The notes under the pieces were generated by a model that saw only the letters and a program-made list of their open reading frames with translations, made no database searches and had not been told where the DNA came from. A DNA stretch of 45,532 bases, from NCBI GenBank assembly GCA_030611505.1, contig JAUWPO010000002.1, forward strand, positions 1 to 45,532, in the 5' to 3' direction. The translations under genes and the position numbers were made by a program. Source of the stretch: Chloroflexota bacterium. Its GTDB lineage: Bacteria; Chloroflexota; Anaerolineae; Anaerolineales; UBA4823. Positions 1,806-33,891 of this stretch are shown piece by piece (the first letter of the stretch is position 1; the number at the start of each line of letters is the position of its first letter).

Positions 1806-3815
1806 ATGAGTGAAAAAGTTGGAGTCTACATTTGCCATTGCGGCACAAACATCGCTAAGACAGTGGATGTAGAAGAGGTGGCTCTTTGGGCTGGCGAACA
1901 GGACCATGTAGATGTCGCCCGGGAATATAAATTCATGTGTTCCAGCCTCGGTCAGGAACTCATTGAAGAGGATATTAAGGAAAAGGGTTTAACGAAGATA
2001 GTTGTCGCTTCCTGCTCACCCCATATGCACGAAAAAACCTTCCGCACGGCTTGTGTACGGGGTGGATTAAATCCCTTCATGTTTGAAATGGCTAATATTC
2101 GTGAGCACGATTCATGGACAACGGATGATCGTGAAGCTGCAACTTTGAAGGCTAAAGCTCTCACAAAAGCAGCTATAGAACGCGTCATACACAACCAGCC
2201 ATTAGAACCATTACCTGTGGAGATTAATCCAAATACTCTTGTAGTGGGAGGTGGCATTGCCGGGATTTCCGCTGCTTTAGAACTAGCCGAAGCTGGGAAC
2301 CATGTCTACTTGGTAGAGCGGGAGCCATCCATTGGCGGACACATGGCCCAATTAGATAAAACATTCCCTACATTGGACTGCTCAGCCTGTATACTCACAC
2401 CGAAAATGGTTGATGTTGGACAGCATCCCAATATTACACTCCTCACTTACAGCGAAGTAGAGGCTGTAGGAGGATATCTAGGCAATTTCGACGTGACAGT
2501 GCGCAAAAAAGCCCGTTATGTTGATGAGGAGCATTGCACAGGTTGCGGCATCTGCATTGAGAAATGCCCCTATAAGGTTGTAGACAACGTCTTTGAAGCC
2601 GGGCTTGGGGCACGCAAAGTGATCTACCGTCCTTTCCCGCAGGCGGTACCCAAGTACCCGGTCATAGACACGGAGAATTGTGTCTATTTCCAACGGGGTA
2701 AATGCAAAGCCTGCCAGATTTTCTGTCCAACTGACCCCAACTCAATAGATTTCGAACAACAAGACGAAATTCTTCAAATAGTGGTGGGCAACATTATCTT
2801 AGCCACGGGTTTTGACCTTTTCGATGTCAGTCAAATACCTCAATACGGCTATGGCCGGTTGGCTAATGTGTTCACCAGCCTCGAATTCGAACGCATGGTA
2901 AACGCATCTGGACCTACAGATGGGAAAATCGTTCTACGAGACTTGGAAACACCGCCCGAATCCGTAGTCATCATACATTGCGTCGGATCCCGGGACGAAA
3001 ACTACCATAAGTACTGCTCGAAAGTTTGCTGCATGTACTCTTTGAAATTTGCGCATTTAATTCACGAACGTCTCCCCGAGGCGGAGGTGTACAACTGTTA
3101 TATTGACATGCGTACACCCGGCAAGGGGTACGAGGAGTTCTACAACCGTCTCCTAGAAGAAGGCACACATTTCATACGCGGTAAGGTGGCAGAGGTAAGC
3201 GACGTAGCCCGAATAGAGGAAGAAGAAGGGAAACTTATCGTCCAGGTAGCGGATACTCTTATCAGTAAACAGCGCCGTATCCCTGTGGACATGGTCATCC
3301 TCAGTCCTGCAATGGAAGCTCGCAACGACTCTCAAGAAGTATCCCAACTATTCAGGATGGGCTGTGACTTCGACGGCTTTTTCGTCGAACGCCATCCCAA
3401 GTTAGATCCGGTTGCAACCATGACCGAAGGCATCTACATTGCCGGGGCTTGCCAGGGTCCCAAGGATGTTCCCGACACAGTATCACAAGGCGCTGCTGCT
3501 GCGGCTCGTGTAGCCAGTTTTATCAGCCGGGGTACTGTAATGATGGAACCGATACGTGCAAGTATAAATCAAGAACTATGCTCCGGATGCCGTATATGCA
3601 ATACGATGTGTCCCTATAATGCTATCGTATTCCATGAAGACAGTAATGTCTCTGAAGTCATCACGGCACTTTGCCAGGGATGCGGTACATGTGTAGCAGC
3701 ATGCCCAAGTGGCATTATTACAGGTGCCCATTTCACTAATGATCAACTTTTGGCTCAGATAGAAGGAATTCTATGGGACGTTCGGTCAAATCTTGACTTG
3801 GTTCCGGTCGAGTAG
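1806..3815 (+). CDS. hdrA: Heterodisulfide reductase subunit A-like FAD/Fe-S flavoprotein
   Basis: 669 aa. N-terminal VYICHCGTNI, GGGIAGISAALELAEAG dinucleotide fold, four CX2CX2CX3CP motifs. AAGGAG RBS upstream. Confidence 0.9.
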   Translation: MSEKVGVYICHCGTNIAKTVDVEEVALWAGEQDHVDVAREYKFMCSSLGQELIEEDIKEKGLTKIVVASCSPHMHEKTFRTACVRGGLNPFMFEMANIREHDSWTTDDREAATLKAKALTKAAIERVIHNQPLEPLPVEINPNTLVVGGGIAGISAALELAEAGNHVYLVEREPSIGGHMAQLDKTFPTLDCSACILTPKMVDVGQHPNITLLTYSEVEAVGGYLGNFDVTVRKKARYVDEEHCTGCGICIEKCPYKVVDNVFEAGLGARKVIYRPFPQAVPKYPVIDTENCVYFQRGKCKACQIFCPTDPNSIDFEQQDEILQIVVGNIILATGFDLFDVSQIPQYGYGRLANVFTSLEFERMVNASGPTDGKIVLRDLETPPESVVIIHCVGSRDENYHKYCSKVCCMYSLKFAHLIHERLPEAEVYNCYIDMRTPGKGYEEFYNRLLEEGTHFIRGKVAEVSDVARIEEEEGKLIVQVADTLISKQRRIPVDMVILSPAMEARNDSQEVSQLFRMGCDFDGFFVERHPKLDPVATMTEGIYIAGACQGPKDVPDTVSQGAAAAARVASFISRGTVMMEPIRASINQELCSGCRICNTMCPYNAIVFHEDSNVSEVITALCQGCGTCVAACPSGIITGAHFTNDQLLAQIEGILWDVRSNLDLVPVE

Positions 3816-11021: not shown

Positions 11022-11424
11022 GGGGATGAAAGGTCTCGACGGGAGAGGCTGGCCCCGAATTGCGAGCCGAGAGGCGCCGATCTCGATAAATCAGCGCACA
11101 AAACAAGTGCCAATCGCACAAACTACGCTGCTCTTCCTCTCGCTGCATAAGCGAAATTTTGAGCGGCGGACCCTCTAAAGAAGGGTCACGTCCACTTTCA
11201 TCCTACTCTGGCTGGGTGAAAGATTGGGCGTCAAAAAAGTCGGAGTGCCGTACGTGTCACACCGCTAAACGTGCGAAAGAGGGACTTTCGGGTCCCAGCG
11301 GTTAGCCAGGAGGTCACCCTTGTTGGTCAGGAACTATCTGGTGAAATAAAAACGATTAACTACGCTCGTAGACATTCGAGGGACGATTCTTTCGGACTCG
11401 GGTTCGAATCCCGACATCTCCACC
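11022..11424 (+). ncRNA. ssrA: tmRNA (transfer-messenger RNA)
   Basis: 5' GGGGATG pairs with 3' CATCTCC, including a G3:U wobble, followed by ACC. T-arm GGGTTCGAATCCC. Internal tag ORF GCC AAT CGC ACA AAC TAC GCT GCT CTT CCT CTC GCT GCA TAA encodes ANRTNYAALPLAA. Confidence 0.9.
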
Positions 11425-11430
11425 TATCCC

Positions 11431-21989: not shown

Positions 21990-22060
21990 CAAACGCAGGA
22001 AAGAATTCATTGCCTAGTTACAAAGTTCACGATACACTATGAATGGGAAGTGAGGTACAA

Positions 22061-22429
22061 ATGACTGCTGTAAAAATAATCGCTTACATAGCTGCAGCTA
22101 TCTTGATTTTCTTTGGTGTGCTGTTTATCTGGGGTGCTTTCAGTCCTCAAGGCTCAACAGGATGGATTCCGATTGGATTAATCAGTGTGGGGATCGGGTT
22201 TGTCTTGATATGGTTCGCAAGCCGTAGAAAACCTGCGGTAGAACAGACTGATTCTAGTGTAACATTGAATATAGATCTGCCAGGTAATGTCGATTTAGAT
22301 GCTTTTAAATGCCAATCATGCGGGGGCGCATTGACAACCGACAATATTAAGATGGTCGCAGGAGCACCGGTCGTAAGCTGCCCCTACTGCAGTACCACTT
22401 ATCAGTTAACTGAAGACCCAAAATGGTGA
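22061..22429 (+). CDS. Two-TM membrane protein with a C-terminal CX2C...CX2C zinc ribbon
   Basis: ATG 22061 lies 6 nt after GTGAGG. Two hydrophobic helices, then SRRK, then CQSCGG...CPYCST. Confidence 0.6.
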   Translation: MTAVKIIAYIAAAILIFFGVLFIWGAFSPQGSTGWIPIGLISVGIGFVLIWFASRRKPAVEQTDSSVTLNIDLPGNVDLDAFKCQSCGGALTTDNIKMVAGAPVVSCPYCSTTYQLTEDPKW

Positions 22430-22503
22430 CGAGTAACAAAGCGCATCGTAGCTAAATGCCTAAATTCACTCTTCTAGTTTATCAATCTCGAATTGGAGGG
22501 CAC

Positions 22504-24177
22504 GTGAAAAAAGTATTTCTCAGTTTATTTTTGTTATTCCTCCTGCTGGTGACTCCAGTTAATACTCTTGCGGTTACCTATTACTTCAGCCTCGACAGTA
22601 TGGATGTCCACGTTTTTATAAACGAAAATGGGACATATTCAATTGATTATTTGTTCTTCTTTTCAAACGATCCATCAGCGTCACCAATCGATTTTGTGGA
22701 TGTCGGGCTTCCTAATTCCAATTTTGACGTAAACAAAATATCAGCCGAAGTAAATGGGAAATCCATTACCGATATTTCTAAAAGCGATTACCAGGGTTCT
22801 GGTGTTGGTGTGGCGTTGGCTCTTAGAGGGGATGCAATCCAACCCGGTGAAACTGGTCAAGTTCACGTTTTTATTGATGGTGTAGATCGTGTAGTTCATC
22901 CAGACAGCCAAGACGACAATTATGCCAGCGCTGTATTTGGTACAACTTTCTTCGGTTCCCAATTTGTTACAGGCACAACCGATATATCGGTAACGTTTCA
23001 CTTACCACCAGGAGTACAACCCGAAGAACCACGCTGGCACTCAGCTCCTGACGGTTTCCCAGTCGAACCCGAAACTGGGATAGATGAACAGGGACGTGTA
23101 ACCTACACATGGAGAAACCCCCAAGCACTCGGATATAAACAATATGAATTCGGCGCTTCTTTTCCAGGGCAGTATATCCCGGCTGAATCAGTGGTGCGTA
23201 CAAGCATCTGGGGGTTTTTGGGCACCTTCACTGAGGCCCTTTGCCCCAATGTTATTTGTTGCGGTGGTATTGCTTTCGCATTGTTAGGGATATTCACGGC
23301 ATATCGCAGCACGCAAAAGCGAAAGCTTCATTACTTGCCGCCAAAAATCGCAATAGAAGGTCATGGCATCAAAAGAGGTCTGACGGCGGTAGAAGCTGCT
23401 ATTCTGCTTGAACAGCCAATGGACAAGATAATGACCATGATCTTGTTCTCCACAATAAAAAAAGGCGCTGCAACGGTAATAGAACGCGAACCACTCGAGA
23501 TTGATGTTACAGACCCACTTCCAGAAGGACTGCATGCTTATGAGACCAAGTTTCTTAACGCCATGCAAGAAAAAAGATCAGCCGCCCGTCGTAAAGATTT
23601 GCAGGAAGCCATGATTGATCTGATCAACAGTGTCTCCAAGAAGATGAAGGGTTTCAGCCGGCCTGAGACAGTGGATTACTACCGCGACATCACCAAGCGA
23701 GCATGGGCTCAAGTCGAGGCCGCCGAAACTCCGGAAGTGAAAAGCGAGAAATTTGATGAAAACATGGATTGGACGATGCTGGATGAAGATTACGAAGACC
23801 GCACTCGAGATGTATTTCGCACTGGACCGGTATTTGTCCCTATGTGGTGGCCTCGCTACGATCCGAATTATCGAGGCAGTGTCACATCAGCAAGCCCAAA
23901 ACCCGTTTCAACAACTTCACATTTACCAACCGGTACAGGAATGTCGCTTCCCCAGCTCCCAGGTTCAGCGTTTGCAGCCTCGGTTGTAACTGGTGTCCAG
24001 AATTTTTCAAGCGATGTGATCGGTAATGTAACCAATTTCACCAACGGCGTTACCCAAAAAACGAATCCCGTCCCAGTATCAAAAAGTGGCCGCGGTGGAG
24101 GTAGTTCTGGGGGTGGATGTGCTTGCGCATGTGCCTGCGCTGGCTGCGCCTGTGCCTGTGCTGGAGGAGGAAGGTAA
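22504..24177 (+). CDS. DUF2207-like single-pass membrane protein with a Gly-rich / Cys-Ala repeat C-terminal tail
   Basis: GTG 22504 lies 5 nt after GGAGGG. Features in order:
- signal peptide KKVFLSLFLLFLLLVTPVNTLA;
- about 220-aa ectodomain;
- TM segment VICCGGIAFALLGIFTAY followed by RSTQKRK;
- GLTAVEAAILL...STIKKGAATVIE segment like the DUF2207 cytoplasmic region;
- C-terminus GRGGGSSGGGCACACACAGCACACAGGGR. Confidence 0.7.
   Translation: MKKVFLSLFLLFLLLVTPVNTLAVTYYFSLDSMDVHVFINENGTYSIDYLFFFSNDPSASPIDFVDVGLPNSNFDVNKISAEVNGKSITDISKSDYQGSGVGVALALRGDAIQPGETGQVHVFIDGVDRVVHPDSQDDNYASAVFGTTFFGSQFVTGTTDISVTFHLPPGVQPEEPRWHSAPDGFPVEPETGIDEQGRVTYTWRNPQALGYKQYEFGASFPGQYIPAESVVRTSIWGFLGTFTEALCPNVICCGGIAFALLGIFTAYRSTQKRKLHYLPPKIAIEGHGIKRGLTAVEAAILLEQPMDKIMTMILFSTIKKGAATVIEREPLEIDVTDPLPEGLHAYETKFLNAMQEKRSAARRKDLQEAMIDLINSVSKKMKGFSRPETVDYYRDITKRAWAQVEAAETPEVKSEKFDENMDWTMLDEDYEDRTRDVFRTGPVFVPMWWPRYDPNYRGSVTSASPKPVSTTSHLPTGTGMSLPQLPGSAFAASVVTGVQNFSSDVIGNVTNFTNGVTQKTNPVPVSKSGRGGGSSGGGCACACACAGCACACAGGGR
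24118..24162 (+). other. Coding Cys-Ala repeat (CACACACAGCACACA, 7 Cys in 15 residues)
   Basis: Reads tgt gct tgc gca tgt gcc tgc gct ggc tgc gcc tgt gcc tgt gct. Codon usage is mixed, so this is not a simple DNA microsatellite. Confidence 0.9.
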
Positions 24178-24258
24178 ATACAGTTTCTATAATCTTGTTG
24201 ATATTTGTTGCTAACTAACGTCAATGATAAACAATATTACCATGTACTGACCGCTAAA

Positions 24259-25614
24259 ATGAGTATAAAGAATTTTCTCAACACTCTAAAAACCACGATT
24301 AACAGTTCTCAGTTCGATAACCCCACCCCTGGTTTATATCACTATGAACGCCAGACGGTCGGCGAGAAAAGCCGCATTCACCTGCGTATCGACGAAGACG
24401 GAAGTGGTTTGTTATTAGTAAATGCAAGTCGGGTAATGCATCTCAATCCGACGGCTGCTTTTATGTCATATTTAACATTAGGTGAATTCCCGACAGAACA
24501 GGCTGTGCGAGCCTTAAACAGCCGTTACAAAATTACTTCTCATCAAGCGAAGTACGACTATACGCATCTTGTTGAGCAGATTAATGAATTGATCCGTCCA
24601 GACAGCGTTTGTCCCATTCATGATCTGGATTTGGTGATAACCCCACCTTTCAGCATAAAACCGTCTGCCCCATACCGCATGGACCTGGCGCTAACTTATC
24701 GCTGCAATAACGATTGTCCCCATTGCTATAACGCCCGTCCAAGAAACTTTCCTGAAATGTCTACCGGAGACTGGGAAGTGGTGCTCGATCATCTCTGGCA
24801 GATCAGTATACCTCACGTTGTCTTCACGGGAGGAGAACCAACACTAAGAAAAGATCTTTGTGAATTAATACGCCACGCCGAAAATAATGGTCAAATTACA
24901 GGAATTAACACCAACGGCAGACGGCTTAGTGACCCTGAATATGTAAACAAATTAGTCCATGCTGGATTGGATCATGTACAGATCACGCTTGAATCACACG
25001 ATGAAAACGTTCACGATAATATGGTTCACTCGCACGGAGCCTGGGCGCAAACTGTATCAGGCATCCGGAACGCTTTGGATAGTCCACTCTTCGTCATGAC
25101 GAACTCAACGATGCTGAAGGAGAACATTCCGTTCTTAGAAGAAACTTTGGAATTCCTGGCTTCGCTCGGTGTCCCTACGGTCGGATTGAACGCTCTAATC
25201 TATTCTGGTCGCGGGGCAACTGTCGGAACAGGGATAGATGAAAAAGAGCTACAGCCATTGTTGGAAATCGCCCGGGAAATAACAGAGAAAAATAACCAGA
25301 GATTGATCTGGTATACACCTACCCAGTATTGCAATTTTGACCCTATGCAGTTGGAATTGGGCGTTAAAGGATGTACAGCAGCCTTGTATAACATGTGCAT
25401 CGAACCCGATGGAGGCGTACTCCCCTGCCAGTCATACTACCAACCTTTAGGTAATATTATCCAGGACTCGTGGGATTCAATTTGGAATCACGAACTTGCA
25501 ATTTCTCTCCGCGAGCGAAGATACATTCCGGATAAGTGCTCTGATTGTATATTATTATCCGAATGTGGTGGCGGCTGTCCGTTATACTCAAAATATGCTG
25601 ACGATGCTCAATGA
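24259..25614 (+). CDS. Radical SAM/SPASM enzyme with an N-terminal PqqD/RRE-like domain
   Basis: CX3CX2C = CNNDCPHC (nt 24703-24726). FTGGEPTL. SPASM CX12GX4C ... CX2CX5CX3C (nt 25372-25578). The N-terminal domain has the LLLVNASRVMHLNPTAAFMSYL pattern. The start is ATG 24259, or TTG 24205 as in the track. Confidence 0.85.
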   Translation: MSIKNFLNTLKTTINSSQFDNPTPGLYHYERQTVGEKSRIHLRIDEDGSGLLLVNASRVMHLNPTAAFMSYLTLGEFPTEQAVRALNSRYKITSHQAKYDYTHLVEQINELIRPDSVCPIHDLDLVITPPFSIKPSAPYRMDLALTYRCNNDCPHCYNARPRNFPEMSTGDWEVVLDHLWQISIPHVVFTGGEPTLRKDLCELIRHAENNGQITGINTNGRRLSDPEYVNKLVHAGLDHVQITLESHDENVHDNMVHSHGAWAQTVSGIRNALDSPLFVMTNSTMLKENIPFLEETLEFLASLGVPTVGLNALIYSGRGATVGTGIDEKELQPLLEIAREITEKNNQRLIWYTPTQYCNFDPMQLELGVKGCTAALYNMCIEPDGGVLPCQSYYQPLGNIIQDSWDSIWNHELAISLRERRYIPDKCSDCILLSECGGGCPLYSKYADDAQ

Positions 25615-25679
25615 ATGAAGTGTTTTTCATCCAAAGGCTATTTCACAATCAATCAATTAATAAGATGATTAAATAGAGT

Positions 25680-26831
25680 ATGTCTATGACTAGTAAAATG
25701 AATTCGCTTCGTCGTTTGTTCACGCCAATAAAACCAATCCCTTCTGGAATCTATCATTATATATCCCCTCCAGATGATCCGCGCAATTACCGCATGCACC
25801 TGCGACTCGAACCGGAAGGAAATGGTGTTCTGATCATCAACGCCAGCACTATACTCCACTTGAATCAGACTGCTGCCGAATATGCTTACTACCTGGTAAA
25901 AAATGAACCCGTCGAACAAGCTGCTCACAAAATGGTTGAACGTTATCATGTCGACCTAGAACAGGCAATTAATGATTACCAGGAGTTTGTAGATCGAATA
26001 CAAACACTTATAAATACTCCAGACCTCGATCCGGTCACTTTCCTGGATTTAGATCGTATCCGTCCTTTCACCGGACATATAACAGCACCTTATCGCCTTG
26101 ATTGCGCACTGACTTACCGTATACCCGAAAGGACAACAGAAACTGCTCTTATTAAACGTGTGGATAGGGAGCTAGACACGATTGAATGGAAATCTGTATT
26201 TGATAAAGCATGGTCAGCCGGCATCCCACATATTATCTTCACCGGTGGAGAACCGACTTTGCGCGATGATTTGCCTGAGCTCATCGCTCACGCCGAATCC
26301 AACGATCAGGTGACTGGTCTGATCAGCGATGGGCTGCGTCTATCTGAACGTGATTACCTGGATTCGCTGCTCCAAACTGGTTTGGATCATTTAATGATCA
26401 TCTTCCAACCAGATAATGAAGCCGCCTGGGATGCTTTGGAAAATTCCCTTGTGGAAGATTTATTTGTAGCAGTCCATCTTACTCTCGATGATAAAAACAA
26501 AGACGAGCTGGCTGGTTTGATTGATCAACTGGCTGAAAGGGGTGTAAAAGCCATATCGCTGAGCGCCCATGATCAAAGCTTGTATGGTGTTTTGGAAAAG
26601 CTTCGTAGTCAGGTTGCCGATTTAACACTTGAACTTGTATGGAACTTACCAGTACCTTATTCTACGTTCAATCCGGTCGATCTAGAAACTGAACTAATAG
26701 AACAGATTGAAGGCGAAGGTAGAGCCTGGTTGTATGTCGAACCTGATGGTGATGTTCTTCCCGCCCAAGGGGTAAACCGTGTCCTGGGCAACATTCTCAG
26801 CGATAATTGGGATCATATCTGGAAAGGGTGA
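25680..26831 (+). CDS. Cysteine-less paralog of the adjacent radical SAM enzyme (predicted unable to bind Fe-S clusters)
   Basis: 383 aa, alignable along its length with 24259-25614 (same N-terminal domain, APYRLD.ALTYR, FTGGEPTLRDDL, GLDH, EPDGDVLP). IPERTTET replaces CNNDCPHC. LPAQ replaces LPCQ. It ends before the CX2CX5CX3C block and has only one Cys in total. Confidence 0.75.
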   Translation: MSMTSKMNSLRRLFTPIKPIPSGIYHYISPPDDPRNYRMHLRLEPEGNGVLIINASTILHLNQTAAEYAYYLVKNEPVEQAAHKMVERYHVDLEQAINDYQEFVDRIQTLINTPDLDPVTFLDLDRIRPFTGHITAPYRLDCALTYRIPERTTETALIKRVDRELDTIEWKSVFDKAWSAGIPHIIFTGGEPTLRDDLPELIAHAESNDQVTGLISDGLRLSERDYLDSLLQTGLDHLMIIFQPDNEAAWDALENSLVEDLFVAVHLTLDDKNKDELAGLIDQLAERGVKAISLSAHDQSLYGVLEKLRSQVADLTLELVWNLPVPYSTFNPVDLETELIEQIEGEGRAWLYVEPDGDVLPAQGVNRVLGNILSDNWDHIWKG

Positions 26832-27633
26832 CCCTGCCTTGCCGCTTTCCCCTCTAGAATGGCACAATCGTTTTGTCCTGCAAGCGCGTTGGACGAGGAA
26901 AATCCGCACCTATATATTTAAACGAGCGAGAGTATTGCACAATAACCGCATACTAGAGATTGGCTGCGGCACAGGTGCAATTATTAATGAAACAATTCCT
27001 ATGATTGGGGGATATAACAATCAAAACATTGGCAAAGATAGCTATGCGCATATCTTTGGTCTTGATTTGAATATTAATTATCTTTTACTGGCTTCGAACC
27101 TTGTCCCCGTGGCTAAACTCACTCAAGGTGATGCTCACACCCTTCCCTATCCTCGTGATTGTTTTGACCTCACCATCTGCCACTTCTTACTGCTTTGGGT
27201 AACGCACCCAGAAGTCGTTGTCACCGAAATGGCGCGCGTTACCGCGCCTGGTGGCGCTGTTTTCATTTTAGCAGAACCGGATTACGGGGGACGGATCGAT
27301 TACCCGCTGGAATTAGGACAGCTCGGAATTTGGCAGCATGAAGCGCTGAAAAGTCAGGGAGCTGAGCCTAATTTGGGTCGCCAATTAGCATCTATCCTAA
27401 ATAAAGCTGGACTAAAAAATATTGAAGTAGGTGTTCTCGGGGGGCAGTGGAAAGGTAAACCAGAAAAAGATGAGTTGGAATCTGAATGGATGGTACTGCT
27501 TTCGGATCTGCAGAATTATGTTCCCCTGGAAAGGCTTGAACAACTGCAAAAAATTGATGCTAACGCTTGGAAAAGAGGTGAGCGCATTTTATACGTCCCC
27601 ACTTTTTACGGGTGGGGGCGTGTTCCTGAGTGA
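26779..27633 (+). CDS. Class I SAM-dependent methyltransferase
   Basis: GTG 26779 lies 6 nt after AAGGGG. Motif I ILEIGCGTGAIINE, motif post-I FGLDLN, CFDLTICHFLL. Overlaps the upstream gene by 53 nt. Confidence 0.8.
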   Translation: MSWATFSAIIGIISGKGDPALPLSPLEWHNRFVLQARWTRKIRTYIFKRARVLHNNRILEIGCGTGAIINETIPMIGGYNNQNIGKDSYAHIFGLDLNINYLLLASNLVPVAKLTQGDAHTLPYPRDCFDLTICHFLLLWVTHPEVVVTEMARVTAPGGAVFILAEPDYGGRIDYPLELGQLGIWQHEALKSQGAEPNLGRQLASILNKAGLKNIEVGVLGGQWKGKPEKDELESEWMVLLSDLQNYVPLERLEQLQKIDANAWKRGERILYVPTFYGWGRVPE

Positions 27634-27635
27634 AA

Positions 27636-27986
27636 TTAATCCCCAATAGGAAAACCTACTTCAACCCGGTTATCCACAACTCGTGTTGGATAAGCTGGAA
27701 TGTCGACAATCGCTGGCAGCGAGAGCGCTTTTCCTGAACTGATTTCAAACCGCGCCCCATGGCGTGGACAGATGATCTTATCACCATCTAACTCACCATC
27801 CCCCAATGGTCCATCATCATGACTGCATAAATCGGCAATCGCAAATAACCTTCCAGCAACGTTAAAAAGGACAATTGCCAACTCATCTACTTCAATATAT
27901 AAACGATCACCTTCAACGATCTCGTCAACGGATGCAACAGGAACAAATTCGCATTCTTTTGGATTGATCTTGGTATAGTCGTACAT
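27636..27986 (-). CDS. Rieske [2Fe-2S] ferredoxin-like protein of the suf operon
   Basis: 116 aa with CSHDDGPL and CPRHGARF Rieske motifs. Confidence 0.85.
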   Translation of the reverse strand: MYDYTKINPKECEFVPVASVDEIVEGDRLYIEVDELAIVLFNVAGRLFAIADLCSHDDGPLGDGELDGDKIICPRHGARFEISSGKALSLPAIVDIPAYPTRVVDNRVEVGFPIGD

Positions 27987-28033
27987 TTCACATCCTTTCG
28001 GAAAAACCCCCTCTTCTGCGGGAGTTCAGCGCC

Positions 28034-28429
28034 TCATTCTACAAGATCATCGCTTGCTTCACCCAGCCCGTATACACCCGCTTTAAGAACCTTAAGCGAA
28101 AGAAGCGCACATTTTAAGCGTACCGGACCTAATTCAATACCTAACATCTCCAGGATATCTTCTTTTGTCAAGGCTTTCACCTCGTCGATTGTTTTCCCTT
28201 GGATTGATTCCATCAAAAGGTCAGCAGAAGCCAGCGAAATTGCACAGCCATGACCATCAAATACAGCTTCGTTTACCCGCCCATCTTCGCCTACACGGAG
28301 ATCAATGCGGATGTGATCCCCGCATAACGGATTATCGTCCTCAAATGATATATCGTGAGGATCTAAAGTGCCTTGATTAAGCGGGTTTTTATAACGATCA
28401 ATTATGATTTCTCTGTAAAAATCGTCCAT
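28034..28429 (-). CDS. sufU: SUF-type Fe-S scaffold / sulfur acceptor (NifU N-terminal family)
   Basis: 131 aa. YREIIIDRYKNPLNQG, NPLCGD and GHGCAIS motifs. Confidence 0.85.
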   Translation of the reverse strand: MDDFYREIIIDRYKNPLNQGTLDPHDISFEDDNPLCGDHIRIDLRVGEDGRVNEAVFDGHGCAISLASADLLMESIQGKTIDEVKALTKEDILEMLGIELGPVRLKCALLSLKVLKAGVYGLGEASDDLVE

Positions 28430-28486
28430 ATTGCTCTGGAATTATCCTTTCAGGTTGATGCATGGCTTGAACTTAATTCTAAACAA

Positions 28487-29740
28487 CTATAGCCCAAATA
28501 TTTCTAAAACCGAATAAAGGGATTTCACTAAATGATCGACTTCTTCACGTGTATTGTAGAGATAGAAACTTGCGCGGGCTGTTGCCGGCAGGTTGAACTT
28601 TTCGTGTAGCGGCATCGCGCAGTGATGACCAGCACGTATGGCAATCCCCTCTCCGTCAAGGATTTGAGATATATCATGTGGATGTATGCCTTTCATTGAG
28701 AAGGAGAATATAGCTCCTTTTCGATCCGCCTCGGGACCAAAAACACTAACGCCGGGAACTTCTTCTAAACGCTCCAACGCATAGGATGCGATCTCATGTT
28801 CGTGATTCAAAATTTTTTCCATCCCAATTGAGTCTAGGTATTTCACAGCTGATCCGAGACCAATAGCCTCGGCTATGGCCGGAGTACCCGCTTCAAATTT
28901 ATAAGGGATTTCGTTCGTTACGAAAGATCGCAATTCCACGCGTTTTATCATATCGCCGCCGCCCAAGAAAGGTGGCATCGATTCCAAAAATTCTTTTCGT
29001 CCGTACAGTACCCCAATCCCGCTTGGTCCACACATCTTGTGACCAGAGAATGCCAGGAAATCCGTATCCAAATCCTGGACGTTGACGGGCAAATGCGGAA
29101 CTGATTGCGCACCATCAACCACCGTTAATGCACCAGCCTGGTGAGCAAGCCGGATGATTCCTTTTGCTGGGTTGATAGTTCCGAGCACGTTTGACATGTG
29201 AGTGAACCCAACCAACCGGGGTTTCAGTTCAAGCAGCTCCTCAAAAACCTCTAGATCCAGCAACCCATCAGGAGTAACGGGGATAAATTCGAGGCGCAAA
29301 TCCCTCTCCGACGCTAGAATTTGCCACGGTACGAGGTTGGAATGGTGCTCCATTTCAGTCAATATAATCAGATCACCCGGATATAAATTTGCTCTACCCC
29401 AGGAAAATGCCACCAGGTTTATTGATTCGGTCGCGTTCCGTGTAAAAATAATTTGTTTCGGGGACGGTGCTCCGATAAATTCGGCAATTCTTCCTCGAGC
29501 TTCCTCATATTTCGCGGTTGCTTCCTCAGCAATAGTATGGATTCCTCGGTGAATATTCGAATTATATTGACGATAGAAATCGTCCATCGCCTCAATAACA
29601 GCAAAAGGTTTCTGACTGGTGGCCGCGTTATCCAAATAGACTAATGGTACGCCGGGCTTCACTTGCCTGCTCAGAATCGGAAAATCAGCCCGGATTCGGG
29701 TCGTATCTAAACTTCCTTGATGGATTGTATTCAATACCAT
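28487..29740 (-). CDS. sufS: Cysteine desulfurase, SufS type
   Basis: 417 aa. PLP lysine in FSGHKMCGPSGIG and catalytic Cys in RAGHHCAMP. Confidence 0.9.
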   Translation of the reverse strand: MVLNTIHQGSLDTTRIRADFPILSRQVKPGVPLVYLDNAATSQKPFAVIEAMDDFYRQYNSNIHRGIHTIAEEATAKYEEARGRIAEFIGAPSPKQIIFTRNATESINLVAFSWGRANLYPGDLIILTEMEHHSNLVPWQILASERDLRLEFIPVTPDGLLDLEVFEELLELKPRLVGFTHMSNVLGTINPAKGIIRLAHQAGALTVVDGAQSVPHLPVNVQDLDTDFLAFSGHKMCGPSGIGVLYGRKEFLESMPPFLGGGDMIKRVELRSFVTNEIPYKFEAGTPAIAEAIGLGSAVKYLDSIGMEKILNHEHEIASYALERLEEVPGVSVFGPEADRKGAIFSFSMKGIHPHDISQILDGEGIAIRAGHHCAMPLHEKFNLPATARASFYLYNTREEVDHLVKSLYSVLEIFGL

Positions 29741-29776
29741 TTCAATACTCAGAATCGAGGAGCCATATTTTTTATA

Positions 29777-30133
29777 TTAGTTGGTCTTTGCTGAACGAGA
29801 TCGAGAACTACGCCGGCGACGTATTGGACGGCGCAATTTCTGTGAGTCCTTAGGACACCACAATACACGATCAGGTATCATCCAACCATCCGTTAGATAT
29901 ACGTTTTCTCGAAATTGGACAGCGATTATTTTTAGATCCACCTGTACGACGGTACCTTCCAGCCAGTCACGCACCCTATCTCCGTTCTTTTCGTGATCAC
30001 AGAACACTTCCACTCGATCACCAACCTTGTACGGTTCATCAAGATTGGGATCGTTTGTAAAATATAATCCTGACAAGATTGTCTCCTTATTATAAATTTC
30101 AAAAAAGCCAAAGGCGAGGAGTTCTCTCACCAC
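29777..30133 (-). CDS. Hypothetical small protein with an Arg/Ser-rich C-terminal tail
   Basis: 118-aa ORF (GTG start, uncertain) between sufD and sufS. The core YKVGDRVEVF...WLEGTVVQV looks SH3/Tudor-like. Tail RRPIRRRRSSRSRSAKTN. Confidence 0.4.
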   Translation of the reverse strand: MVRELLAFGFFEIYNKETILSGLYFTNDPNLDEPYKVGDRVEVFCDHEKNGDRVRDWLEGTVVQVDLKIIAVQFRENVYLTDGWMIPDRVLWCPKDSQKLRRPIRRRRSSRSRSAKTN

Positions 30134-30287
30134 CTCACCGAGATTTCAGGTTAACCCTCCTTTCTCATATGGCCCACAATTTAATATTCTTTTTTGACAA
30201 GACTTCCTTGGGAAATCCTGACGTTTTTCATTATTTATAAATACGGGTATTCTAGAATTCCTCAAACCATAATTTTAACATCTATTA

Positions 30288-31649
30288 TTACCCCATTTTT
30301 TTAAGAATCTCATCTTGAAAACGGGTCCGGACACCCCCAAAAGGAATGCGTTGCATTATGGGGTCAAAAAAGCCTTCGACAATCAGACGCTCGGCATCCT
30401 TATACGGAATTCCGCGGCTTCTCAAGTAGAAGACCTGATCCGGGTCTATTTTACCAATCGTTGCGCCGTGTGTACAGCGTACATCATCAGCCAATATCTC
30501 TAATCCTGGGATTGAATCAGCACGCGCATTTGAATCTAGTATTAGGTTTCGATTTGCCTGATATCCGTCTGTCTTCTGAGCTCCCGGTGCGACATAGATC
30601 ATACCCTGCCAAACTGAACGGCTGTGTTCGCGAAGCGCTCCTTTAAAAAGCAAATCGCTCATCGTGTTAGGAGCTAGATGGTTTTGCTGGGTATCGTGAT
30701 CGAAATGTTGAACGCCGTCTGTAAAATAAAAGCCGGACATACGTCCAGTTGCTCCCTGACCGATGAGATCAATGTTAGAAAAATTTTTGGTAACATGGCT
30801 TCCTATCGCCCCAAAAATCCAATCCAAATTAGCATCTCGATCTATTCGAGCACGTTCATGACTGAAATTCCACACGTGCTCACCCCATGATTGCAGCTCT
30901 ACAAAACGTAAATTTGCGCCTTGACCCACATAGATTTCTACAAGTCCCGCATGCAATGCTTGTCCATCTTGTTCGTTTGGTGAAGCGGCTTCGTGCAAAT
31001 AAGTTACGGAAGATCCCTCTTCCAACCATACCAGGATGTGAGAGAAAAAAGCCAAGTCCTTACCTGGAGCCCATATTACGCTATGTAAAGGGAGTTCTAC
31101 ATGTATACCTTGGGGGACATATAGGAAAACACCTTTTTGTGACATTGCTGCTGCCAGGGCAGCAAATTTCCCTTCATCCGATTTCACAATCTTACCCATG
31201 ATCAGGGAAAGGAGATCTGGGTGCTGGCGCTCTGCAGTGATTAAATCCGTAAAGATCACACCTTTAGCGGAGATAGTAGAGCTCAGCTCAACTTGTACCT
31301 CCTCATTTGTGAAAACAATCTGACCGCCATGAATATCTCCAACAAGAGGTTCTATTAATTCAGCATCAATGGGAAAAAGCGATTCGGTAGTTAAGTTCTC
31401 CATTGATACCGGAAAAAATTCATCAACCGGCAATCTGCGCAGGTTCGTACGCCGCCACGCTTCCTCGCTGGTTGTCGGAATGGGCAACTTTTCAAATTCG
31501 TCCCAAGCTAGTGAGCGGTATTCCTTTATGAATTCTGGGACATTTCCATTACCAGAGATAGCCTCAACCATCTCACGTGAAAATAAAAAACTTTTCTTCT
31601 GGCGTTTATCAACACGCCGGGCACGTTTTGATACAGTTCGGGTGGACAT
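30288..31649 (-). CDS. sufD: Fe-S cluster assembly protein SufD
   Basis: 453 aa. C-terminal beta-helix region and the FYLRSRGI..AERLIVEGF motif shared with SufB. Position after sufB. Confidence 0.85.
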   Translation of the reverse strand: MSTRTVSKRARRVDKRQKKSFLFSREMVEAISGNGNVPEFIKEYRSLAWDEFEKLPIPTTSEEAWRRTNLRRLPVDEFFPVSMENLTTESLFPIDAELIEPLVGDIHGGQIVFTNEEVQVELSSTISAKGVIFTDLITAERQHPDLLSLIMGKIVKSDEGKFAALAAAMSQKGVFLYVPQGIHVELPLHSVIWAPGKDLAFFSHILVWLEEGSSVTYLHEAASPNEQDGQALHAGLVEIYVGQGANLRFVELQSWGEHVWNFSHERARIDRDANLDWIFGAIGSHVTKNFSNIDLIGQGATGRMSGFYFTDGVQHFDHDTQQNHLAPNTMSDLLFKGALREHSRSVWQGMIYVAPGAQKTDGYQANRNLILDSNARADSIPGLEILADDVRCTHGATIGKIDPDQVFYLRSRGIPYKDAERLIVEGFFDPIMQRIPFGGVRTRFQDEILKKMG

Positions 31650-31650
31650 A

Positions 31651-33054
31651 TTATCCTATAGAACCTTCCATCTGTATTTGAATCAAGCGATTCATTTCAA
31701 TTGCATATTCCATTGGTAATTCTTTAACCAGTGGTTCAATAAAACCGGAAACGACCATCGTAGTTGCTTCTTCCTCGCTGAGTCCGCGGCTCATCAAATA
31801 GAAGAGTTGTTCTTCTCCAACTTTAGAGACAGAAGCTTCATGACCTATTGTGACATCATCCTCGTCAATCTCAATATATGGATATGTATCCGAACGAGAT
31901 GTGTCATCCAGAAGCAGTGCATCACAAACAACATTCGAACGCACATCTTTCGCGCCCTTATATACTTTCAATAAACCTCGATAGGATGATCGTCCGGAAC
32001 CTTTGCTAATTGATTTCGACGTAACCTTACTGCTGGTATGTGGAGCTACGTGAATAACCTTTCCTCCGGCATCCTGATGCTGCCCTTCTCCAGCGAATGC
32101 CATAGAAAGAATTTCGCCATGGGCGCCAGGACCAATCAAGTAGCAAGACGGGTATTTCATAGTCAGCTTTGAACCCAGGTTGGCGTCTACCCACTCCATT
32201 GTAGCACCTTCATGTACTAAGGCACGCTGGGTTACAAGGTTGTACACATTTGTAGACCAGTTTTGAATGGTCGTATAGCGAACTCGGGCTCCTTTTTTGA
32301 CGACAATCTCAATGACGCCGCTATGAAGCGAATCGCTTGAATAAGTTGGCGCCGTACATCCTTCGACATAATGCACTTGCGATCCTTCATCGGCGATGAT
32401 CATAGTTCTTTCAAATTGACCGATATTAGCTACATTCAAGCGGAAATACGCCTGAAGCGGTAGATTGACAGTAACACCTTTGGGAATGTATACAAATGAT
32501 CCACCCGACCAGACAGCACTATTAAGGGCTGCAAATTTATTGTCCTCTATGGGGATAACTGTACTGAAATATTCCCGAAACAAATCAGGGTGCTCTCGCA
32601 ATCCATCTTCAATACTCAGGAATATCACTCCTTGTTCTTCGAGGTGTTCCTGAATCTGATGATAGACCATCTCCGATTCATATTGTGCACCTACTCCAGC
32701 GAGAAATTTTTGCTCAGCTTCTGGGATTCCAAGTTTTTCAAATGTATTCTTGATGGTTTCTGGAACATCGTCCCAACTTTTGCTCTCAGCTTCCGCTGGT
32801 TTGACATAATAGTAAATATTATCCAGGTCTAACTCAGATAAGTCCCCCCCCCAGGTGGGCATCGGGCGTTTTTGAAAATGCTCAAAAGCTTTTAAGCGGA
32901 AATCCAACATCCATTCGGGTTCGCCCTTCATCGCAGATATTTGTTCAACAATTTCGCGATCTAATCCTATTCGGGATTTAAACACGTAAGTCTCAGGATC
33001 TTTGAAACCAAACTGATAATCTCCAATATCTTTTAGTATCTGGGTATCACTCAT
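31651..33054 (-). CDS. sufB: Fe-S cluster assembly protein SufB
   Basis: 467 aa. [19 protein letters not shown] and [13 protein letters not shown] motifs. Confidence 0.9.
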
Positions 33055-33111
33055 AAGAACCTCTAAGGCAATCCTTGACTTTGGTGGTAATGTAACGATA
33101 AGATACTCCGG

Positions 33112-33891
33112 TCATGCTGCAGCGGAACGTTTCCTTTTACGAAGCCAATCATAACCATGCTCTTCCAGGTGAAGCGCTAAGTCTGGGCCACCAGTTTCAA
33201 CTATCTGTCCATCCAGCATGATATGTACATAATCAGGTTTGATATAGTTCAATATCCTCTGATAATGAGTGATCACCAATATACCCAGATCAGGACCTCG
33301 CAATGAATTCACGCCTTCAGCAACAATTCGCAAAGCGTCGATGTCTAAACCAGAATCAGTTTCATCCATCAGACCGATTTCTGGTTGAAGAGCCGCCATT
33401 TGTAATACTTCAGCACGTTTCTTCTCCCCTCCCGAGAATCCTTCATTAAGATAGCGTCCGGCGAAAGAGTGATCCATTTGAAAGAAGTCCATGCGTTCCT
33501 TTAGCATACGTCGAAATTCTGGGATTGATATACCCTTATCATCTGGGTCTTTGGCTCTTCTTTGGGCATTAATCGCTGTTCTTAGGAAGTTTGCTACCGA
33601 TACTCCAGGTATGGCTACCGGATATTGAAATGCCAGGAACAACCCTAAGTGTGACCTTTCGTCAGGTTCTAATTCAAGCAAATCTATTCCCTTAAAGCAG
33701 ACCTCTCCTTCAGTAATTTCATATGAAGGATGCCCCATGAGAGCATAAGCAAGGGTTGATTTTCCCGTACCATTTGGTCCCATCAGAGCATGGACTTCGC
33801 CTTGTTTTACAATTAGATTAACCCCCTTGAGAATCTCGTGACCATCAATGCCTACATGCACATTACGAATATCCAGTTCCGACATAAACAA
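33112..33891 (-). CDS. sufC: Fe-S cluster assembly ATPase SufC
   Basis: 259 aa. GPNGTGKST, FSGGEKKR and GLMDETDSGLD motifs. Confidence 0.9.
   Translation of the reverse strand: MFMSELDIRNVHVGIDGHEILKGVNLIVKQGEVHALMGPNGTGKSTLAYALMGHPSYEITEGEVCFKGIDLLELEPDERSHLGLFLAFQYPVAIPGVSVANFLRTAINAQRRAKDPDDKGISIPEFRRMLKERMDFFQMDHSFAGRYLNEGFSGGEKKRAEVLQMAALQPEIGLMDETDSGLDIDALRIVAEGVNSLRGPDLGILVITHYQRILNYIKPDYVHIMLDGQIVETGGPDLALHLEEHGYDWLRKRKRSAAA

Follow-up and report, generated by a model that had tools for sequence, protein, structure and literature searches.

The window analysed here is a 45,532-nucleotide (nt) stretch of DNA from a Chloroflexota bacterium (contig JAUWPO010000002.1, assembly GCA_030611505.1), in which five co-directional open reading frames (ORFs) occupy positions 22043-27633, downstream of pstA-pstB-phoU. 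These genes, g1 to g5, encode a small membrane protein with a zinc ribbon, a type I membrane protein that ends in alternating Cys and Ala residues, an enzyme with a RiPP (ribosomally made peptide with post-translational modifications) recognition element (RRE) followed by radical S-adenosylmethionine (SAM) and SPASM domains, a Cys-free paralog of that enzyme, and a methyltransferase. A previous reading made from the letters of the window alone (the sequence-only reading) had proposed that they form an undescribed modification cassette with the g2 tail as its candidate substrate. All five ORFs that it called are present, and its proposal is now supported by the linkage of the genes across genomes, by the constraint on the tail and by the lack of a matching curated family; the tail is still a putative substrate. 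All genomes compared were metagenome-assembled genomes (MAGs) or metagenome contigs, and the evidence is wholly comparative. Structures of g2 and g3 were modelled with AlphaFold2 (AF2) and compared by Foldseek, and domains were assigned with Pfam, NCBIfam and Rfam.

Organization of the gene block

The block begins 53 or 71 nt past the end of phoU (21989), g4 and g5 overlap by 53 nt, and the stop codon of a convergent gene lies 2 nt beyond g5, all of which the sequence-only reading had described correctly. The likely start of g1 is ATG 22061, with GAGG 6 nt upstream, and that of g2 is GTG 22504, which has GGAGG upstream and agrees with homologs of 557 amino acids (aa). For g3, ATG 24259 is likely, as the homolog P0002 begins MSLKDFF. 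With the starts so corrected, the gaps g1-g2, g2-g3 and g3-g4 measure 74, 81 and 65 nt, which is too short for a separate precursor peptide, and the small ORFs in the cassette all overlap genes in other frames. We therefore rejected a hidden small precursor ORF, in agreement with the earlier statement that no convincing one was to be seen. The claim that no internal terminator is present also held, with 5 terminator-like sites against 7.1 expected by chance. Promoter-like and terminator-like matches in the block are rarer than in shuffled sequence, and internal promoters and terminators were rejected for this reason. The coordinates of the genes and their features are collected in Table 1.

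Table 1. Genes of the block and features of their products, in window coordinates (TM, transmembrane)
Feature	Position	Strand	Remark
g1	22061-22429	+	small membrane protein; ORF opens 22043 (128 aa)
g1 TM helices	22076-22141, 22163-22219	+	predicted
g1 cytoplasmic CxxC...CxxC zinc ribbon	22310-22426	+	ends YQLTEDPKW-stop
g2	22504-24177	+	557-aa type I membrane protein; ORF opens 22456 (573 aa)
g2 signal peptide	22507-22572	+	predicted
g2 beta-sandwich ectodomain	22573-23181	+	AF2 confident
g2 TM helix	23239-23304	+	AF2 confident; then RSTQKRK
g2 cytoplasmic helical domain after TM helix		+	AF2 moderately confident
g2 leader-like segment LPQLPGSAFAASVVTGVQNFSSDVIGNVTNFTNGVTQKTNPVPV	23947-24078	+	conserved in 27 sequences
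g2 Ser/Gly linker of variable length	24079-24117	+	between leader-like segment and tail
g2 Cys-Ala tail CACACACAGCACACAGGGR	24118-24174	+	19 residues, 7 Cys; stop codon 24175-24177
g2 C-terminal end as the ORF reads			GGGCACACACAGCACACAGGGR
g2 C-terminal tryptic peptide			GGGSSGGGCACACACAGCACACAGGGR; seven thiols
g3	24259-25614	+	RRE + radical SAM + SPASM; ORF opens TTG 24205 (469 aa)
g3 RRE, PqqD-like	~24331-24603	+	Pfam PqqD 19.7 bits, 1.1e-3
g3 CNNDCPHC	24703-24726	+	radical SAM motif
g3 GGE motif (FTGGEPTL)	24823-24846	+	SAM binding
g3 SPASM domain	25327-25581	+	Pfam SPASM 41 bits, 2.2e-10 (cutoff 21.5)
g4	25680-26831	+	Cys-free g3 paralog (383 aa)
g4 RRE	25746-26024	+	Pfam PqqD 27.1 bits, above cutoff 23.4
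g4 site of lost CxxxCxxC	26097-26162	+	motif gone, all SPASM cysteines gone
g4 GGEPTL	26238-26261	+	in radical SAM-like barrel
g5	26779-27633	+	class I SAM-dependent methyltransferase (284 aa)
g5 SAM motif	26950-26979	+	methyltransferase

The Cys-Ala tail of g2

The tail of g2 is as the sequence-only reading described it, and so is the TM segment with RSTQKRK after it; its count of one such segment has to be amended by an additional N-terminal signal or TM segment. Because g2 carries a signal peptide and RSTQKRK follows its TM helix, the positive-inside rule puts the tail in the cytoplasm, where the zinc ribbon of g1 is also predicted to lie. The label DUF2207 given to g2 did not survive: hmmscan of 27 family members returned 0 DUF2207 matches and only noise at E <= 10, and g2 itself matches no Pfam family (DUF2207 included, E <= 0.01) and no NCBIfam model. 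A single one of the 27 members matches TIGR04222 (E = 0.054). Membership of g2 in either family was rejected in the lack of supporting profile matches. A profile search of PDB sequences with g2 gave noise only, and by Foldseek its ectodomain resembles the luminal domain of ribophorin I and the N-domain of M1 aminopeptidase. We set structure aside as a guide to function, as this generic beta-sandwich ectodomain is uninformative and gave no functional lead.

The C-terminal part of g2 is laid out differently. AF2 predicts residues 414-557 to be disordered except for weak helices over the conserved stretch LPGSxFAASxVxGVQxFSxxVxGNxxxFTxxxTxxTNPxP, whose positions P, L, PG, FAA, V, S, V, G, FT, T and TNP.P are invariant in 27 sequences. 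The motif LPGxxFA...F can still be recognised in g2 homologs of Bathyarchaeia. This leader-like segment is a candidate recognition sequence, and the succession of recognition-like segment, linker and Cys-rich core resembles the layout of a RiPP precursor that has been fused to a membrane protein.

For the constraint on the tail we used the best 80 loci, chosen by g3, from a scan in which one genome stood for each GTDB species (the species loci). The tail is encoded by 78 of 78 g2 orthologs in these loci, in 4 of them behind assembly frameshifts, and the rest of g2 is 42-70% identical (95% in the near-identical L001). Every position of the tail shows synonymous codon variation: the Cys codons TGC and TGT are near 50:50 at several positions, Ala uses all four GCN and Gly all four GGN codons, Arg uses six (CGN/AGR), and all three stop codons occur. 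Free synonymous variation with fixed amino acids means that selection acts on the peptide and not on DNA or RNA, and the constraint at the protein level is near-absolute. A (TGYGCN)n repeat or microsatellite as the cause of the conservation was rejected on the same ground, since the synonymous positions all vary. Length varies only in the first block of the tail, which is (CA)3, (CA)4 or (CA)5. The tail is retained by every tandem paralog of g2, including those whose ectodomain is duplicated; second copies of about 770-800 aa with duplicated ectodomain and an identical tail lie at 5659-7983 in L043, 3295-5607 in L044 and 3066-5462 in L070.

The tail is also kept in the wider family. A HMMER scan of 1.84 billion cluster representatives (clustered at 50% identity) recovered 842 relatives of g2 with E <= 1e-3, of which 313 reach E <= 1e-30. 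We inspected the best 150 of the 842, with identities as low as 32%: the ending ...CACACAGGGR is present in 104, and 11 have variant tails with alternating Cys; the remaining 35 are tail-less and look truncated, fragmentary or frameshifted. In the variants Cys still alternates with a small residue, and what differs is how many blocks there are or which two residues link them (AG, AS, VS, DS). Alternating Cys is found even in homologs only 32% identical. Bathyarchaeia tails have three blocks and 10 Cys, in the pattern CVCAC-xx-CACACAC-V[GS]-CACACA-GGG[AG][RH].

Twelve short ORFs in the loci also bear the tail. Eleven are pieces of g2-like genes that result from frameshifts or degraded copies, and only the one in L168 (1709-1948, + strand) has no g2 body upstream. 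This stand-alone ORF of 77 aa consists of a leader-like segment (FSSGVLGGLTGFTSGVTNVTNPPPPP), a Ser/Gly linker and CACACACACAGCACACAGGGR, and 60 nt of sequence follow it on the contig. We read it as either a free precursor peptide or a fragment created by the assembly.

The g3 enzyme

Profile hidden Markov model searches of the cassette proteins matched the radical SAM, SPASM, PqqD and methyltransferase families. In g3 the intact CNNDCPHC motif and the complete SPASM signature of the sequence-only reading were both confirmed. The protein matches Pfam Radical_SAM at 91 bits (cutoff 29.5, 9.8e-26); C167, C171 and C174 are invariant in 18 sequences, and the eight SPASM cysteines C376, C390, C398, C408, C445, C448, C454 and C458 are invariant too. 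An N-terminal domain of about 140 aa with an RRE had also been described. The RRE stands, as a fold over residues 43-130, and the length of the domain becomes about 145 aa after correction of the start. AF2 gives this domain four strands and three helices, its PqqD score lies just below the Pfam cutoff of 23.4, and PF05402 is precomputed on many g3 homologs. The top fold matches of g3 are SkfB, SuiB, BlsE, CteB and PqqE, with SkfB first, SuiB second and CteB (5why) 8th; GDGT-MAS and anSME were also matched. SkfB, SuiB and CteB align with g3 over its full length, RRE included, and SkfB is also its best match among PDB sequences (5e-19). With cluster motif, SPASM and RRE all present, g3 has the architecture of the RRE-dependent radical SAM/SPASM peptide maturases, and since Pfam, AF2, Foldseek and the PDB sequence match agree, we consider it an enzyme of the RiPP-maturase build.

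One more invariant Cys of g3, placed after the RRE and before the radical SAM core, belongs to the sequence RPDxxCP[IV]H (window 24610-24621, residues 136-139), with a nearly invariant His. It is possibly an additional ligand or a redox residue.

No NCBIfam model reaches its cutoff for g3 or g4. The protein g3 matches NirJ2 (128 bits, cutoff 500) and PqqE (121 bits, cutoff 381) best, with AhbD and AhbC among those that follow. These matches, together with GDGT-MAS and BlsE among the structural ones and a sequence conservation high enough to suggest a housekeeping role, would suit an enzyme pair in which g3 and g4 make a small-molecule cofactor or a lipid, by tetrapyrrole chemistry of the NirJ/AhbD type or by membrane-lipid chemistry, for use by a complex of g1 and g2. 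The scores are far under the cutoffs, though, and g3 and g4 both carry a PqqD-like RRE. To our knowledge, tetrapyrrole and lipid radical SAM enzymes have no such element. Nor is any other gene of a cofactor or lipid pathway conserved near the loci examined. We regard this as the least probable of the alternatives considered here.

The proteins g1, g4 and g5

The sequence-only reading called g1 a zinc-ribbon membrane protein, and we indeed found two TM helices and a CxxC...CxxC ribbon. In 75 orthologs its C-terminus, KCxSCGG...VAGAPVVxCPYCxTxYQLTEEPKW, is nearly invariant. A different substrate for g3 can thus be imagined: the enzyme might act on ...CPYCxTxYQLTEEPKW, for instance by a streptide-type link to the terminal Trp, with g2 as partner or scaffold. 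Consistent with this, the terminal W and EEP are kept in Bathyarchaeia, g1 is the constant companion of g3, and the second-best structural match of g3, SuiB, is a Lys-Trp cross-linking enzyme. The L202 lineage, however, has Thr in place of the Lys before the Trp, and the conserved stretch belongs to a folded zinc ribbon rather than to a free leader-core peptide, whereas the g2 tail is more conserved still and ends a disordered linker as a RiPP core would. We consider g1 an improbable substrate and continue with the g2 tail as the favoured one.

The description of g4 as a dead radical SAM paralog was borne out by the absence of CxxxCxxC. Pfam Radical_SAM still matches g4 at 43 bits, and its 73 orthologs have 0-4 Cys and never CxxxCxxC, with GGEPTLR and the RRE retained. 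Its best NCBIfam match is PqqE (74 bits, cutoff 381); the pseudo-SAM/SPASM model TIGR04347 scores 49 against a cutoff of 525, and g4 also lacks SPASM cysteines. For g5, the assignment as a methyltransferase is upheld by Methyltransf_11 (3.7e-14) and by Methyltransf_25 and Methyltransf_31.

Linkage of the genes across genomes

We reasoned from both ends of the association, with a forward test seeded by g3 and a reverse test seeded by the tail. The scan by species found a g3 relative in at least 591 bacterial species genomes. In the 80 species loci, tblastn of the window proteins detected g4 in 80, g2 in 78, g1 in 77 and g5 in 69. The order g1-g2-g3-g4-g5 is constant, the missing genes coincide with contig ends, and some loci have unrelated genes inserted between g3, g4 and g5. 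The flanking genes were found far less often: pstA, pstB and phoU in 21-27 of the 80 loci, and Rieske, SufU and SufS in 25-26. The near-constant presence of the cassette genes beside variable pst/phoU and suf flanks indicates that the cassette is conserved and its flanks are not. With g2 adjacent in 78 of the 80 loci, homologs of the enzyme do not sit beside a different peptide. Close homologs of g3 number in the thousands at 62-73% identity, and those that are named come from Anaerolineales or Chloroflexota MAGs.

In the reverse test, metagenome contigs were scanned for DNA that encodes CACACAGCACACAGGGR, which yielded at least 120 loci. The counts that follow are among the loci listed, with the g2 body judged where at least 900 nt of upstream sequence was present and g3 where at least 1 kb was present downstream. 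A g2-like body precedes the tail in 92 of 93 loci, and a g3-like gene follows on the same strand in 85 of 87. In 76 of the 85 it lies no farther than 300 nt away, and tail and g3 match are a median of 67 nt apart. Tails without a radical SAM neighbour are therefore not widespread. The two exceptions, L121 and L187, are one lineage. Here a g2-like protein with 33% identity and the exact tail (L121 1475-3322, L187 9130-10971) is followed by a gene whose product is a TM protein containing CDECGY...CPxCG and repeats of the unit "IAVNITNNHR".

From either seed, then, g2 and g3 travel together. The sequence-only reading had based the link on adjacency only; the linkage now has the forward and reverse tests behind it as well, and the role of the tail as substrate stays a prediction. 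Chance adjacency and lineage-limited synteny were rejected in view of the 80 loci with varying flanks, the reverse test, and the reordered and archaeal versions described below.

Two further genes recur near the cassette. An ORF for a PAS-like protein of 126-132 aa (e.g. L066 9362-9742) has homologs in the Anaerolineae loci, in 19 of the 80 and mostly directly after g3, and a signal peptidase I gene lies directly 3' of g5 in 15 of 80 (L066 14504-15139). They may be clade-specific accessories or plain synteny.

The cassette beyond Anaerolineae

A divergent bacterial lineage (L180, L188, L146, L152) has g1-g2-g3-g5 without g4, with g3 44-49% and g2 28-42% identical to the window proteins. In L201 the order is g1-g3-pseudo-g2-g5, where the pseudo-enzyme is a 440-aa radical SAM-like protein (2045-3367) that has lost CxxxCxxC and kept some SPASM cysteines (CPECPDLPICRADCP); its decay is thus less advanced than that of g4, which is wholly Cys-free, and stands at an intermediate stage. 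On contigs with archaeal markers (TBP, Alba, NreA, tRNA-intron endonuclease), a tight trio of g1 (115 aa), g2 and g3 occurs in four different contexts, and two of the homologs are named Candidatus Bathyarchaeia by NCBI. A methyltransferase is near the trio in one of these four contexts and not adjacent in the other three. A g1-like gene precedes g2 in the Bathyarchaeia loci and in the distant loci L201 and L206, g5 is found downstream in L180, L188, L146, L201 and L206, and g4 is absent from the Bathyarchaeia loci and from the divergent bacterial lineage.

Given the Bathyarchaeia trio and the divergent and reordered loci, the universal core is g1, g2 and g3; g5 is a frequent accessory and g4 an accessory of some lineages. 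The five-gene cassette of the sequence-only reading is thus right as to the presence and linkage of the genes and too wide as to the core. Linkage of g1, g2 and g3 survives both gene reordering (L201) and a change of domain (Bathyarchaeia).

Neighbouring and other features of the window

The gene that converges on g5 had been called a suf gene. A suf operon (SufC, SufB, SufD, SufS, SufU) does lie at 27636-33891 on the minus strand, and the neighbour itself is its closing gene, for a Rieske-type ferredoxin, with SufU and SufS next. This Rieske/SufU/SufS arrangement is kept in 26 of the 80 species loci, this part being the one of the operon that was searched for. A full-length transfer-messenger RNA (tmRNA) gene, unrelated to the cassette, lies at 11022-11425 (+ strand; Rfam RF00023, 165 bits). 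As Rfam finds nothing in the window except this far-upstream gene, a riboswitch or other RNA element was rejected. A plasmid-borne or mobile cassette was rejected too, since tblastn with g2 gave 0 matches in 72,556 plasmids. Pfam and NCBIfam scans showed no metal transporter, chaperone or regulator among the cassette proteins.

Proposed modification of the g2 tail

The precursor-like C-terminus of g2 and the adjacent maturase-type g3 lead us to favour, with somewhat more confidence than doubt, a membrane-associated protein-maturation system in which g3 modifies the g2 tail. All parts of this system are predicted to lie on the cytoplasmic side. We envisage that g3 would dock, via its PqqD-like element, on the g2 segment LPGxxFAAxxVxGxQ...FTxxxTxxTNPxP and would apply 5'-deoxyadenosyl radical chemistry to the alternating Cys-Ala tail on its flexible Ser/Gly linker. 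Thioether cross-links are the most likely outcome: intramolecular S-C links of the sactionine or ranthionine type, from a Cys sulfur to an Ala or Gly carbon. The two-residue linkers suggest a hairpin or meander with thiols on one face and methyls on the other, and the (CA)n blocks might become a rigid laddered hairpin once cross-linked. In Anaerolineae, g4 could be a non-catalytic partner that holds the substrate by its own recognition element; g5 may contribute a methyl group, and g1 may use its cytoplasmic zinc ribbon to anchor the complex to the membrane.

As for the physiological role, our leading guess is that the system works at the inner face of the membrane, either in redox or in binding metal or sulfur. 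More tentatively, the matured tail can be pictured as a new protein-derived prosthetic structure, a thioether-laddered sheet built by a radical SAM enzyme, with a sulfur face, tethered to the membrane in the cytoplasm. Such a structure might form a metal or metal-sulfide site or an electron or sulfur relay, and would be a conserved housekeeping device of Anaerolineae and Bathyarchaeia.

Several points weigh against modification of the tail. The support consists of gene content, sequence and predicted structure, and AF2 gives no confident structure for g2 residues 414-557. No radical SAM gene lies within 5 kb downstream of the tailed g2 homolog of L121; around that of L187, the 2.7 kb downstream and the 9 kb upstream contain none either. 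A hairpin with two-residue turns would set Cys facing Cys rather than Ala, which would suit disulfides or metal at least as well as sactionines. The 62-70% identity of g3 across Anaerolineae resembles that of a housekeeping enzyme more than that of a natural-product maturase. Finally, the conserved g1 C-terminus could be the real substrate of g3, or the tail could serve unmodified as a metal-binding C-x-C module.

The last of these deserves a fuller statement. The tail might bind metal or an Fe-S cluster as it is, with g3 acting elsewhere or assembling or inserting the cluster, and g2 would then be a sensor, store or carrier of metal or sulfur. Its C-x-C blocks with small spacers are like the motifs of metallothionein and CopY, of which the CxCxxxxCxC of CopY binds Cu(I) and Zn(II) (PMC12648655), and a hairpin would probably bring all thiols to one face. 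The Rieske-SufU-SufS neighbours in 26 of 80 loci fit this picture, and in bufferins it is Cys-derived groups, that is modified Cys, that chelate copper (PMC12452194). Yet a plain binding tail needs no RRE-bearing enzyme, and one is adjacent in about 98% of the testable loci listed, in both domains. Genes for metal transport, chaperones or regulators are missing from the cassette, the convergent synteny with suf has disappeared from most loci, and metal-binding tails usually tolerate substitutions that CACACACAGCACACAGGGR does not. On balance we think an unmodified tail rather unlikely and retain its modification by g3 as the favoured explanation.

If this explanation is right, the cassette represents a new post-translational modification of a protein, possibly with new cysteine chemistry, and it would offer a first clue to the function of the conserved "hypothetical" membrane protein found in Anaerolineae and Bathyarchaeia, two abundant, mostly uncultured anaerobic lineages that dominate anoxic sediments and digesters. 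Mining for RiPP-type radical SAM enzymes looks almost only beside small precursors, so a substrate in the tail of a 557-aa membrane protein would be missed. The scale is considerable, with g3 in at least 591 bacterial species genomes, the g1-g2-g3 trio also in Bathyarchaeia, and a g2 family of 842 clusters at 50% identity.

Comparison with known systems

The sequence-only reading matched the cassette to no named radical SAM system, and this has held: none of the cassette proteins tested reaches the cutoff of a curated family. Neither the tail string nor a description of the cassette was found in the literature searched, subscription journals being outside its coverage.

The sactipeptide and ranthipeptide maturases SkfB, AlbA and CteB have the same three-part build as g3 (RRE, radical SAM, SPASM/twitch), and their systems share with the cassette a Cys-rich candidate substrate after a conserved recognition-like segment. 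Their models are far from satisfied by g3, which scores 73 against 300 for SkfB (TIGR04403) and 84 against 625 for StsB (NF045574). Moreover, the substrate there is a small exported peptide, whereas here it would be the tail of a 557-aa membrane protein, in a cassette with no small precursor and no gene for a protease, transporter or immunity protein, and with housekeeping-type conservation across a bacterial class and in Archaea.

PqqE/PqqD and MftC/MftB also pair a radical SAM/SPASM enzyme with a PqqD-type recognition domain, and their product is used by the producer. PqqE (TIGR02109) is the top NCBIfam match of g4 and the second of g3, at the sub-cutoff scores given above, and MftC (TIGR03962) scores 87 bits with g3 against a cutoff of 265. 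In contrast to those systems, no pqqA, pqqB, pqqC or Mft genes are present here (no pqq genes in the 80 loci), and the g2 tail has no Glu-Tyr or Val-Tyr. NirJ, NirJ1/2, AhbC and AhbD differ from g3 and g4 by the RRE that the latter carry, and the best score to any of them is the NirJ2 value.

QhpD/QhpC and anSME are radical SAM/SPASM systems that modify proteins and not free peptides; QhpD forms Cys-Asp/Glu thioethers and anSME forms formylglycine. The likeness to the proposed system is that of a SPASM enzyme acting on Cys in a protein that goes on working in the cell, and anSME structures are among the fold matches of g3. However, QhpD and anSME models are absent from the 25 best NCBIfam matches listed for g3, the g2 tail has neither Asp/Glu acceptors nor the C/S-x-P/A-x-R sulfatase motif, and no amine dehydrogenase or sulfatase gene is nearby. 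In borosins of the OphMA type, the core peptide is fused to the C-terminus of a large protein, which is the methyltransferase itself, and the product is released. The position of the core, at the extreme C-terminus after a flexible region, is like that of the g2 tail, but here a membrane protein that lacks any enzyme domain would be the carrier, and no protease is linked.

The closest published idea concerns TIGR04222 membrane proteins, whose Cys-rich, Ser/Gly, unstructured C-terminal tails have been proposed as MNIO substrates (PMC12452194). In both cases a membrane-protein tail is the proposed target of a neighbouring RiPP-type enzyme. The enzyme there is an MNIO (DUF692) and here a radical SAM/SPASM protein, with no MNIO domain in the cassette proteins; the carrier family differs too, as the single weak TIGR04222 match among the 27 g2 members indicates. 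TIGR04222 tails are predicted to be periplasmic and are variable, whereas the g2 tail is predicted to be cytoplasmic and is near-invariant, and the link of TIGR04222 to MNIO is loose (a third of genomes have no MNIO), whereas that of g2 to g3 is near-obligate. Altogether, the proposed system would belong to a known type of radical SAM/SPASM post-translational modification, with a putative substrate class and a distribution that are new.

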